From positions 32,001-96,000 of the forward strand of contig CAVQQD010000002.1 in assembly GCA_963714975.1 (NCBI GenBank): DNA of 64,000 nucleotides, read 5' to 3'. The stretch's first letter is position 1, and every line of letters begins with the position of its first letter. Origin of the DNA: an uncultured Gammaproteobacteria bacterium (GTDB taxonomy: Bacteria; Pseudomonadota; Gammaproteobacteria; JAURND01). Below the pieces are notes generated by a model, which did no database searches, was not told the origin of the DNA, and saw nothing but the letters and a program-made list of their open reading frames with translations. Shown one piece after another: positions 36,496 to 37,888 of the stretch. The translations under genes and the position numbers were made by a program.

Positions 36496-36619
36496 ATTTT
36501 TAACCCCCCTCTCCCACCTTCCCTCGCTGGCGAGAGGGAATACGAGTCCCTCGTTGGCGCTTGGGTGCGGAAGAGGACAGCAATTGTAAGTCACCACTTG
36601 TGTTAAAGTAGTTCCTAAG

Positions 36620-36786
36620 AGAGAAAAGGCTCCCTCGCAAGAAGGAGCCTGCGGGCGTGAGCGACCGGTCAGCAATAGGTTATACAGCCGTGGGAATCAA
36701 GGTACTCTAGCCCTAACTCTCGATACGTTTGAATAGTTCATTTGGGACTAAAGCTCCCGCTTACAATCGTAAATATCGAGGTTACC
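36620..36786 (+). ncRNA. Bridge RNA of the IS110 element (5' end approximate)
   Basis: 5' hairpin 36627-36650; target loop LTG GGTCAGCAAT (36667-76) and RTG GTGGGAAT (36690-97); donor loop LDG ATAGTTCAT (36733-41) and RDG CTTACAAT (36760-67); each loop has an inner hairpin and closing stems. Confidence 0.85.
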
Positions 36787-37740
36787 ATGAAATTGTATAG
36801 TTCTTTTATCGGTATGGATATAGGGAAATTTAATTTTGTTGTTGCCTTACATGGAGAAAAGATCACGAAAGAGTATCCAAATAGCGCTGAGGGCATTAAG
36901 GATTTTTTAAAAGATTATGAAGAAATTTTACCCACAGCATTTTGTGTGGTTGAAACGACAGGGGGTCATGAAAAAATTTTGTTACTGGCCCTGCGTTCTA
37001 ATAGATATGCAGTCCATCGTGCAGATACTAGGAAAGTAAAAAACTTTATCCATTCCTATGGTAAAAAGGCAAAAACAGATGCATTAGACGCTAAAGGACT
37101 AGCCCATTATAGTTATGAAAGGTATCAGGAATTAGATATTTATGAACCTCCTGATGAAACGGATATAGCACTTTTTACATTGGTAATGCGTAAAAATGAT
37201 TTAACAGAGATGCTGGTTGCTGAAAAAAATCGCCTTAAATCGCCTAATAATCATGAAATAGTAGAAATAAGTTGTAAAAAAATGATTACCATGCTCTCGG
37301 AAGAAATCAAATTGCTCAATGAGAAAATAAATGAGCTGATTGAAGGTGTACCTTATTTAAGGGAAAAAAGGAAAGTTTTAAAGAGCATTCCAGGGATTGG
37401 TGATGTGCTGAGCTGTGAATTGATTACTTTATTGCCTGAACTAGGAACACTGGATAGGAGAAAAATAGCTGCTTTAGCTGGGTTAGCTCCTCAAGCAAAT
37501 GAGAGTGGCAAATACAAAGGATACAGGCGCTGTGGTTATGGTCGTCAAGGAGTGAAGCCAAAATTATTTCTCGCTGCCATGGCGGCAAGGAATTCAAATT
37601 CGCATCTAAAAGTCTTTTATGAAAAATTGGTTGGGTCAGGTAAAAAGAAAATGGTGGCTTTAACCGCTTTAATGAGAAAAATTTTAGTCATCGCCAATGC
37701 AAAGGTAAGAGATTTCAATAAAGAATATAATTTGGCTTGA
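36787..37740 (+). CDS. IS110 family recombinase/transposase
   Basis: GMDIGK, VVETTGG, AKTDALDA (DEDD); SIPGIG, LAGLAP..ESGK (catalytic Ser); ATG 36787 with GAGG RBS. Confidence 0.95.
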   Translation: MKLYSSFIGMDIGKFNFVVALHGEKITKEYPNSAEGIKDFLKDYEEILPTAFCVVETTGGHEKILLLALRSNRYAVHRADTRKVKNFIHSYGKKAKTDALDAKGLAHYSYERYQELDIYEPPDETDIALFTLVMRKNDLTEMLVAEKNRLKSPNNHEIVEISCKKMITMLSEEIKLLNEKINELIEGVPYLREKRKVLKSIPGIGDVLSCELITLLPELGTLDRRKIAALAGLAPQANESGKYKGYRRCGYGRQGVKPKLFLAAMAARNSNSHLKVFYEKLVGSGKKKMVALTALMRKILVIANAKVRDFNKEYNLA

Positions 37741-37888
37741 AAGAGCACCAAGGAGGGTGCGGTCAAGCCAAATCGACAAGCCCGCTCAGCGGGCGCGTCA
37801 GTAGGGAGAAACCCTAGTTTAGGCTGGGGTTTATAGACTTGTATGCTTAAAAATTTTATTTTTTTAAAATTTTTAAGACATAGTTGAT

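Follow-up and report, generated by a model that had tools for sequence, protein, structure and literature searches.

How does an insertion sequence (IS) choose the sites at which it lands, and is the choice made by an RNA encoded at one of its own ends? The question is raised by a 1306-bp element in the genome of an uncultured Gammaproteobacteria bacterium (GTDB lineage Bacteria; Pseudomonadota; Gammaproteobacteria; JAURND01). The element lies in a stretch of 64,000 nucleotides (GenBank assembly GCA_963714975.1, contig CAVQQD010000002.1, positions 32,001 to 96,000 of the forward strand), and this whole stretch is referred to here as the window. A first-pass annotation, made from the letters of the window, had read the element as an IS621-type bridge-RNA recombination system with four legible guides and an AT core. 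Judged on its sequence, the element carries every hallmark of an IS110-group bridge-RNA system, and it is very probably an autonomous IS of this group that was active recently. The coordinates of all features are given in Table 1.

The limits of the element are backed by three further copies in the genome, which comprises 2.56 Mb in three contigs and in which the copies match from first base to last. Among the four full-length insertions, two are identical, one has a single change and one is broken by an IS3-family element. Occupied sites carry AT at each end of the element, whereas empty target sites carry AT once only, in agreement with the AT core of the first-pass annotation. Immediately before the left AT, the four copies are flanked by TCAGCA, ACAGCA, CCAGCA and TCAGCA, and in all four the right AT is followed by TCCC. 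The outer flanks of the four full insertions are unrelated, and each is therefore a separate insertion. The right end terminates in the left donor half, ATAGTTG, followed by AT.

The intact 317-residue DEDD/Ser recombinase described by the first-pass annotation was confirmed, its open reading frame (ORF) being uninterrupted and both of its Pfam domains being matched, namely PF01548 (DEDD_Tnp_IS110; E 3.9e-19, residues 8-152) and PF02371 (Transposase_20; E 9.6e-14, residues 196-279). The protein also matched the NCBIfam equivalog NF033542, "IS110 family RNA-guided transposase", with 160.7 bits against a cut-off of 140. Its only relatives of solved structure were the transposases of ISCro4 (E 9.4e-32) and IS621 (E 4.6e-29), and the D...E...DxxD and ESG motifs line up with those of ISCro4. 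In an alignment of 31 relatives, E56, D98, D101, S240 and G241 were invariant and D11 was nearly so; the IS621 counterparts of these residues are D11, E60, D102, D105 and S241 (Hiraizumi 2024). The ORF listing runs the frame up to an upstream TTG, yet M1 is invariant among the 31 relatives, and the ATG is preceded by the Shine-Dalgarno sequence GAGG.

All four guide matches that the first-pass annotation had proposed for the left end are present. The left target guide, GGTCAGCAAT (36667-36676), agrees with the left flank plus core, GGACAGCAAT (36575-36584), at 9/10 positions, and its claimed 10/10 agreement with empty sites is borne out by six unoccupied 16-mers, GGTCAGCAATTCCCGC, elsewhere in the genome. 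The right target guide, GTGGGAAT (36690-36697), matches the reverse complement of ATTCCCGC (37887-37894) at 7/8 positions, the odd position being a possible U:G wobble. On the donor side, ATAGTTCAT matches the right end, ATAGTTGAT (37880-37888), at 8/9 positions, and CTTACAAT is the exact reverse complement of the left end, ATTGTAAG. When the segment 36612-36786 was shuffled, with up to one mismatch allowed for the two longer guides, all four guides co-occurred in 0/20000 shuffles, the single guides appearing at frequencies of 0.076, 0.047, 0.018 and 0.003. What did not hold were the lengths first assigned to the target guides: 10 nt on the left and 8 nt on the right are too long, and only the last 8 and the last 6 nt track the flanks. 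Over these effective lengths, the guides of the window copy match their own flanks at 7/8 positions on the left and 6/6 on the right.

The evidence for these lengths came from homologues. In a search of metagenomic proteins, 7033 of the 8000 scored candidates were relatives at E <= 0.001; among the 120 matches listed, 8 non-self proteins were 73-87% identical and the others 57-63%. A scan of metagenome contigs confirmed 139 relatives, of which the best 80 loci (L040-L119; 50-75% identity) were used. At least 215 nt upstream of the gene was available in 70 of the 80 loci, and removal of identical left ends left 68 which, together with the window, formed an alignment of 69 rows. The homologous elements range from 1161 to 1566 bp. 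In 61 related genomes, a match at E <= 1e-20 was found in 10, the element's own genome included, the closest (G054) being 56-57% identical; a single-protein search of a genome contig collection returned only two distant partial matches; and in a plasmid collection the best protein identity was 36%, with no close named element found. The analysis of the element draws on the metagenome set and on none of the loci from the related genomes (L010-L039), the unpublished genome G046 or the two partial matches.

The metagenomic relatives form a clade of about 7000 proteins (50-87% identity) with conserved ends, ATTGTAAG ... ATAGTTGAT, a common RNA scaffold and an AT core, in which the target guides vary. 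Across the 69 rows, a near-constant scaffold (...CGGGCG-TGAGCGACCG..., ...GGTACTCTAGCCC..., ...CTCGAnACGTTTGAATAGTTG..., ...CCCGCTTACAATCG-AAA..., ...CTCGAGG) is interrupted by hypervariable segments that coincide exactly with the two target guides of the window. The window's own guide pair, TCAGCA / GGGA, is absent from the 68 other rows. The element further differs from the clade in having C instead of G at position 7 of the left donor guide and an extra base before the donor-loop hairpin. AT was found in the right target guide of 69/69 rows and in the left target guide of 55/69; by this measure of sequence, the AT core belongs to the whole metagenomic clade and not to the window element alone.

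The first-pass annotation had named covariation across homologous elements as a check, and both guides and fold covary in the 69 rows. For the guides, the left boundary of each row was set as the reverse complement of its own right donor guide, upstream of the RNA (60 rows), and the right boundary by searching past the stop codon for a degenerate pattern of the conserved right end (58 rows). When the 10-mer of the left target guide was compared with the left flank, positions 3-10 matched in 48-56 of the 60 rows, and positions 1-2 in 20/60. For the 8-mer of the right target guide, positions 3-8 matched the right flank in 43-58 of the 58 rows, and positions 1-2 in 11/58 and 25/58. From the positions that track the flanks, the working guides are therefore 6 nt plus AT on the left and 4 nt plus AT on the right, and the target is 12 bp. 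Over all rows, the mean match was 5.15/6 on the left, compared with 2.23 after permutation, and 3.55/4 on the right, compared with 1.42. With one row kept per guide type, the values were 4.93 against 2.00 on the left (41 types) and 3.60 against 1.19 on the right (25 types). In each of these four comparisons, 0/2000 permutations reached the observed value.

The inner hairpins and closing stems that the first-pass annotation had drawn in both loops were seen in the single-sequence fold and are backed by covariation. The RNAalifold consensus of the 69 homologous left ends comprised six helices with 27 pairs in all, each loop having two closing stems and one inner hairpin. Standard pairs occupied 98.2% of the 1850 cells, and changes on both sides occurred in 15 of the 27 pairs (152 cells). 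In the target loop (helices 1-3), 97.8-99.8% of cells were paired, with compensatory changes in 9/12 pairs; in the donor loop (helices 4-6), 96.8-98.9% were paired. None of 500 column shuffles matched any of the five structure measures. When the partners were slid by 1-3 columns, pairing fell to 35-50%, although this control favours the structure because the structure was derived from that same alignment. At the position of the 5' stem-loop, every homologue has a hairpin, each time of a different sequence; this stem-loop lies outside the consensus because it aligns poorly.

The donor side of the RNA follows the element's own ends. The right end reads ATAGTTGAT in 51 of the 69 rows, ATGGTTGAT in 9 and AGAGTTGAT in 2, and none was located in 7. 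Over its first seven bases, the left donor guide is identical to the right end in 59 of 62 rows, and the 10 rows with variants in guide and end alike are all among these: where the guide reads ATGGTTG (8 rows) or AGAGTTG (2 rows), so does the independently located right end. A single mismatch occurs in three rows, one of them the window. The right donor guide is CTTACAAT in 51/69 rows.

A second layer of pairing concerns the handshake guides, the two bases 3' of each right guide, which, once the top strands have been exchanged, pair with the other DNA at positions 6-7 (Hiraizumi 2024). In the window, the target-loop bases CA pair with the donor TG at 2/2 positions and not with the target CA, and the first of them pairs with donor position 7 in 58/62 rows. 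In the donor loop, it is the second handshake base that pairs with target position 6, in 60/69 rows, compared with a permuted mean of 34.7 (reached in 0/5000 permutations), and in 39/45 rows after removal of duplicates, compared with 20.5. Its pairing with any of the other five target positions is confined to 16-26 of the 69 rows. That a donor-loop base tracks a target base is predicted by the bridge mechanism and not by a plain leader RNA.

The genome itself offers targets in abundance. The 16-mer GGTCAGCAATTCCCGC, which occurs perfectly six times, is found at 87 places when up to three mismatches are allowed, and most of these sites occupy the same position in one GC-rich, palindrome-bearing repeat family. 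The 12-mer TCAGCAATTCCC (TCAGCA-AT-TCCC) occurs 14 times, against 0.27 expected from base composition. Targeting of this type, to repetitive extragenic palindromic (REP) sequences, is known for IS110-family elements (Durrant 2024; the ISPpu9 paper).

A decayed left-end fragment provides a natural example of retargeting. This fragment of 165 bp (C3:400236-400400; locus L005) is 96% identical to the element, with 6 changes, of which T>G at position 87 alters the left target guide to GCAGCA-AT and G>A at position 111 alters the right target guide to the reverse complement of AT-TCTC. On its left, the fragment is itself flanked by GCAGCA|AT, as in its altered guide, and the variant site GCAGCAATTCTC (GCAGCA-AT-TCTC) stands unoccupied twice in the genome, in the repeat context ...AAAAAGCAGCAATTCTCGCTGCTC.... 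From the two guide changes and the matching variant sites, it follows that the genome once held a sister lineage aimed at the variant repeat. The fragment is broken off within the donor loop, with the 5' stem-loop and the target loop complete, and could in principle still yield an RNA with a target loop only. The window also holds a 19-bp solo left-end remnant in a variant repeat site. Recombination at a pseudo right end within the left end was considered as the origin of this remnant and rejected, as the junction misfits a clean exchange at a 2-bp core.

The IS3-family element that breaks the fourth copy is about 1.4 kb long (C3:403869-405270; about 2717-4118 of locus L004) and sits in the GCCCGC-TCA-GCGGGC hairpin of that copy. 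It carries orfA (97 aa) and orfB (282 aa) on the minus strand, ends in 11-bp imperfect terminal inverted repeats, TATAGCGGGCG, and is accompanied by a 3-bp duplication, CTC; its family was assigned by the look of its ORFs.

How the RNA would be made is suggested by the ends of the element. The circular form is reported to rebuild a sigma-70 promoter across the core (Durrant 2024). In this element, TTGATT is spelled by the final bases of the right end, the core and the first left-end base taken together, and TG-n-TAAAGT follows 17-18 nt downstream. In 38/60 homologues, the best -10-like hexamer lies at left-end position 21, which is 17 nt after the junction hexamer, and TG precedes it in 30/60. 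In the integrated copy, target DNA occupies the -35 position. A conserved AAGAGAG, from 36617 on, would lie near the 5' end of the RNA. In some homologues (L041, L042, L043, L046 and others), 40-100 extra bases separate the left terminus, with its -10-like box, from the RNA scaffold. As GAGG falls within the 3' strand of the basal stem of the donor loop, we speculate that RNA folding and translation of the recombinase may compete.

In the proposed mechanism, excision of the element would yield a circle whose joined right and left ends share a single AT. The circle junction would create a sigma-70-type promoter, with TTGATT as its -35 element across the junction and the extended -10 in the left end, and transcription from this promoter would produce a bridge RNA of about 170 nt, encoded by the left end, and probably also the mRNA of the recombinase downstream. 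The 317-aa recombinase would bind the bridge RNA. The target loop would then pair with both strands of TCAGCA-AT-TCCC, its left guide with the bottom strand and its right guide with the top strand, while the two guides of the donor loop would pair with the circle junction ATAGTTG-AT-TGTAAG. Strands would be exchanged at the AT core, helped by the handshake bases, CA for the donor TG and G36769 for the target C, and the multicopy REP-like repeat, as the natural target, would give safe landing sites. We infer transcription, the circle, RNA binding and catalysis by homology with IS621, and RNA expression, circle formation and recombination from homology together with the covariation described above.

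Several observations weigh against this interpretation. With respect to the target guides, 11/60 rows match the left flank at no more than 4/6 positions and 3/58 match the right flank at no more than 1/4, these poorly fitting rows being either boundary errors or off-target insertions; moreover, the permutation counts overstate independence because the metagenome rows are related. In the window copy, the left donor guide and the donor disagree at the base adjoining the core (C vs G). The fold energy of the single sequence was not better than that of shuffles (z = -1.09; 25/200 shuffles fold as well), so that the claim of a structure is carried by covariation only. A search of Rfam with 36300-38200 returned no family, its 12 weak matches lying far below the gathering scores and none being a bridge RNA; most of them fall on the flanking GC-rich palindromes, and some are spurious microRNA. 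Among public sequencing runs, the element sequence was found in no RNA run and only in soil-metagenome DNA runs, at shares of at most 0.16. A consensus sigma-70 scan of the integrated left end gave no promoter, and the junction promoter was read by eye, its -10 hexamer TAAAGT being weak here. Two further points concern the donor loop. The left-donor-guide positions opposite the core are AT in the window and vary among the homologues (AA, CT, CA, AT and others), most of which are non-AT, unlike IS621. The first donor-loop handshake base is an invariant C, which pairs with its cognate donor G in 62/62 rows and with the target in 20/69, whereas in IS621 handshake pairing with the cognate DNA blocks the reaction (Hiraizumi 2024).

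These last two points bear on how the clade might exchange strands. In both RNA loops, an invariant C follows the core-binding AU throughout the 69 rows, and this C may contact the protein instead of forming a pair. A bulge of one base in the left donor guide was considered and set aside, since it restores AT in about half of the homologues and not in the rest. It is conceivable, though we consider it rather unlikely, that the clade uses a strand-exchange logic departing from that of IS621, with a cognate C:G pair before exchange, only the second handshake base reading the target, and a left donor guide that is bulged or lacks AT opposite the core. If so, the clade would control the direction or timing of bridge recombination in a different way and, with at least 41 natural target-guide types and its AT core, would represent a second independent programmable scaffold for sites closed to CT-core enzymes.

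The mismatch next to the core also bears on whether the element still moves. A bridge-RNA element that is now inactive in this genome, a fossil whose copies are identical through recent duplication together with their surroundings, would be consistent with this mismatch, with the copy broken by the IS3-family element and with the presence of two fragments. We nevertheless consider this improbable: beyond the 12-bp target, the flanks on either side differ among all four copies, as expected of separate insertions, the copies differ by 0-1 changes in 1306 bp, and the ORF is open with its catalytic residues intact. In addition, the donor position adjoining the core tolerates a mismatch in IS621 (Durrant 2024). 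A recently active element therefore remains the favoured reading of these copies.

A more fundamental alternative is that the left end serves only as a promoter, leader or translational control, and that TCAGCA-AT-TCCC is selected by the protein, or through the shape of a REP-like hairpin, rather than by RNA-DNA pairing. The Shine-Dalgarno GAGG in the basal stem of the donor loop means that the fold could regulate translation, the targets do lie in palindromic repeats, and a preprint reports a structural layer in the target choice of ISPpu10. However, agreement between guides and flanks holds at the level of single bases in 41 left and 25 right guide types, one base of the donor loop varies in step with the target, and both guide changes of the decayed fragment fit a variant site; a choice made purely by protein or shape would predict none of this. 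We accordingly regard this alternative as highly improbable and selection of the target by the bridge RNA as the better account. An element of the IS1111 type with a seekRNA in its right end, downstream of the gene, is scarcely credible despite the fairly long (148 nt), hairpin-rich right end, because no sub-terminal inverted repeats are present and the left end is the longer (204 nt) and contains all four guides and the conserved two-loop fold. Terminal inverted repeats were likewise not found, the longest exact inverted match between the first and the last 45 nt being 5 nt.

Set beside IS621 (from E. coli) and ISCro4 (IS622, from Citrobacter rodentium), the element has the same order of domains and aligned DEDD and Ser residues. 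Both place the RNA in the left end, with a 5' stem-loop, then the target loop, then the donor loop. Alike, too, is the layout of each loop, in which a 5' guide serves the bottom strand and a 3' guide the top strand (Durrant 2024), as are the 2-bp core within the pairings, the putative handshake bases 3' of the right guides, the REP-like natural target and the length of the RNA, predicted at about 170 nt here and 177 nt in IS621. Among the differences, the protein is only about 30% identical to those of IS621 and ISCro4, the core is AT rather than CT as in IS621, and the left target guide has 6+2 nt compared with 7+2 in IS621, the right target guide here having 4+2. The first donor-loop handshake C, which pairs with its own donor G here, would in IS621 engage in a pairing that is inhibitory (Hiraizumi 2024). 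ISPpu9 and ISPpu10 of Pseudomonas putida are, by their description, likewise multicopy IS110-family elements in REP sequences, but the small RNA gene of ISPpu9 lies downstream of the transposase gene, whereas the RNA is upstream here. The IS1111 group has the same type of DEDD transposase and an RNA-guided choice of target (Siddiquee 2024); the sub-terminal inverted repeats (7-17 bp), downstream non-coding region and reversed target-matching segments that this source describes for the group do not apply here.

The IS621-type reading of the first-pass annotation was thus supported, whereas its novelty had been overstated. Bridge-RNA or seekRNA systems of this kind are already published (Durrant 2024, Hiraizumi 2024, Siddiquee 2024), with bridge RNAs predicted in 85.7% of the catalogued IS110-group elements (Durrant 2024); the matching NCBI family is already named RNA-guided, and the AT core is clade-wide. 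The phrase "AT core" was not found in the text of papers on IS110 or bridge RNAs, their figures and supplementary tables lying outside that search. The word "core" does not occur in the C. azorensis preprint, nor in the relevant sense in the cargo preprint. For one analysis, Durrant (2024) kept "only ... CT core guides", which implies that other cores exist in that set, and AT cores, even those of the clade described here, may stand in the figures or tables of that work. The element extends the catalogue of a known kind of RNA-guided recombinase and leaves the known mechanism unchanged.

Bridge recombinases are in active development as programmable tools for the insertion, inversion and excision of DNA. 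Those characterised to date, IS621 and IS622/ISCro4, use CT cores, or GT when engineered. To these, the element adds a distant orthologue of 317 aa, about 30% identical, with a natural AT core and fully readable guides. The sister copy retargeted by two guide changes amounts to a built-in natural control, and the clade, in which 69 distinct RNAs display dozens of natural target specificities on a common scaffold, provides a data set for learning the rules of the guides. From the side of the host, the element shows how an IS can multiply when its landing sites are confined to a harmless intergenic repeat.

Table 1. Features of the element, its copies and related target sites (window positions, unless contig C2 or C3 is named)
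Feature	Position	Strand	Remark
Whole IS110-group insertion sequence, 1306 bp with AT core at both ends	36583..37888	+	copies alike from first to last base
Left AT core copy (crossover dinucleotide)	36583..36584	+	AT at both junctions, 4/4 copies
Right AT core copy	37887..37888	+	AT at both junctions, 4/4 copies
Left target half ACAGCA at this insertion, 5/6 to guide TCAGCA	36577..36582	+	other copies TCAGCA, CCAGCA, TCAGCA
Right target half TCCC, 4/4 to guide	37889..37892	+	TCCC after core in 4/4 copies
Left non-coding end, 204 nt, encoding the predicted bridge RNA	36583..36786	+
Candidate extended -10, TG-n-TAAAGT, read by eye	36601..36609	+	-35 TTGATT exists only across joined ends
Predicted bridge RNA, about 170 nt	36616..36786	+	5' end inferred from -10 and conserved AAGAGAG
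5' stem-loop, 10 pairs	36627..36650	+
Predicted target-binding loop module: closing stems, left guide, inner hairpin, right guide, handshake bases	36653..36713	+
Left target guide, effective 8 nt, TCAGCA+AT	36669..36676	+	positions 3-10 track left flank in homologues
Target-loop inner hairpin (helix 3)	36678..36689	+
Right target guide, effective 6 nt, GGGA+AT	36692..36697	+	reverse complement of AT+TCCC
Target-loop handshake bases CA	36698..36699	+	complementary to donor TG just before core
Predicted donor-binding loop module	36718..36781	+	3' basal strand 36777-36781 contains Shine-Dalgarno GAGG
Left donor guide ATAGTTCAT	36733..36741	+	8/9 to right end
Donor-loop inner hairpin (helix 6)	36744..36758	+	compensatory changes in 4/6 pairs
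Right donor guide CTTACAAT	36760..36767	+	exact reverse complement of 36583-36590
Donor-loop handshake bases CG	36768..36769	+	G pairs with target C two bases before core
Recombinase gene, 317 aa: DEDD RuvC-like domain, coiled coil, Tnp domain with Ser nucleophile	36787..37740	+
Right non-coding end, 148 nt	37741..37888	+	hairpins 37730-37773, GCCCGC-TCA-GCGGGC, 37846-37877
Identical copy	C3:520422-521727
Copy with 1 difference	C3:459655-460960
Copy identical up to position 1205, then IS3-family insertion in right-end hairpin	C3:402653 onwards
Unoccupied perfect target GGTCAGCAATTCCCGC within REP-like repeat	25641..25656	+
Unoccupied near-target CCAGCA-AT-TCCCGC	38030..38042	-	140 bp right of element
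19-bp solo left-end remnant in variant repeat site GCAGCA-AT...TCTCGCTGC	9387..9405 (= C2:41387)	+

GC-rich palindromic intergenic repeats, similar to REP sequences or miniature inverted-repeat transposable elements, surround the element (36440-36582 and 37889-38045) and recur genome-wide in this genome of 43% GC. Several types of module recur within the repeat family (e.g. ...GCTATCCGATGCACACAAATTCGGTCAGCAATTCCCGCTGAAGCCTTGCTCCCCGACGGGTCCTGCCGC...), and the element is inserted into one of these modules, always at the same position. At about 37950-37982 lies a perfect hairpin, CCCCTACCCCC-TTTTTGAAAA-GGGGGTAGGGG.

The genome also contains a second IS110-family transposase, 29-30% identical to that of the element, in four copies at C3:467989-468882, C2:1203049-1203942, C2:654408-655301 and C3:329203-330096 (L032, L035, L037 and L039).

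Among the 120 matches listed for an ABC ATPase encoded nearby, the best named ones belong to metagenome-assembled genomes labelled only as Gammaproteobacteria, at no more than 80% identity, and none comes from a named pathogen. Adjoining the element on the left is an ORF of 423 aa (35142-36413, plus strand) that encodes a complete Ras-family GTPase domain of eukaryotic type (PF00071, E 2.7e-41, residues 82-241), flanked by long extensions at the N- and the C-terminus. Eukaryote-type Ras GTPase domains are unusual in bacteria, and this gene, together with the genome size of 2.56 Mb, hints at an intracellular, amoeba-associated life.

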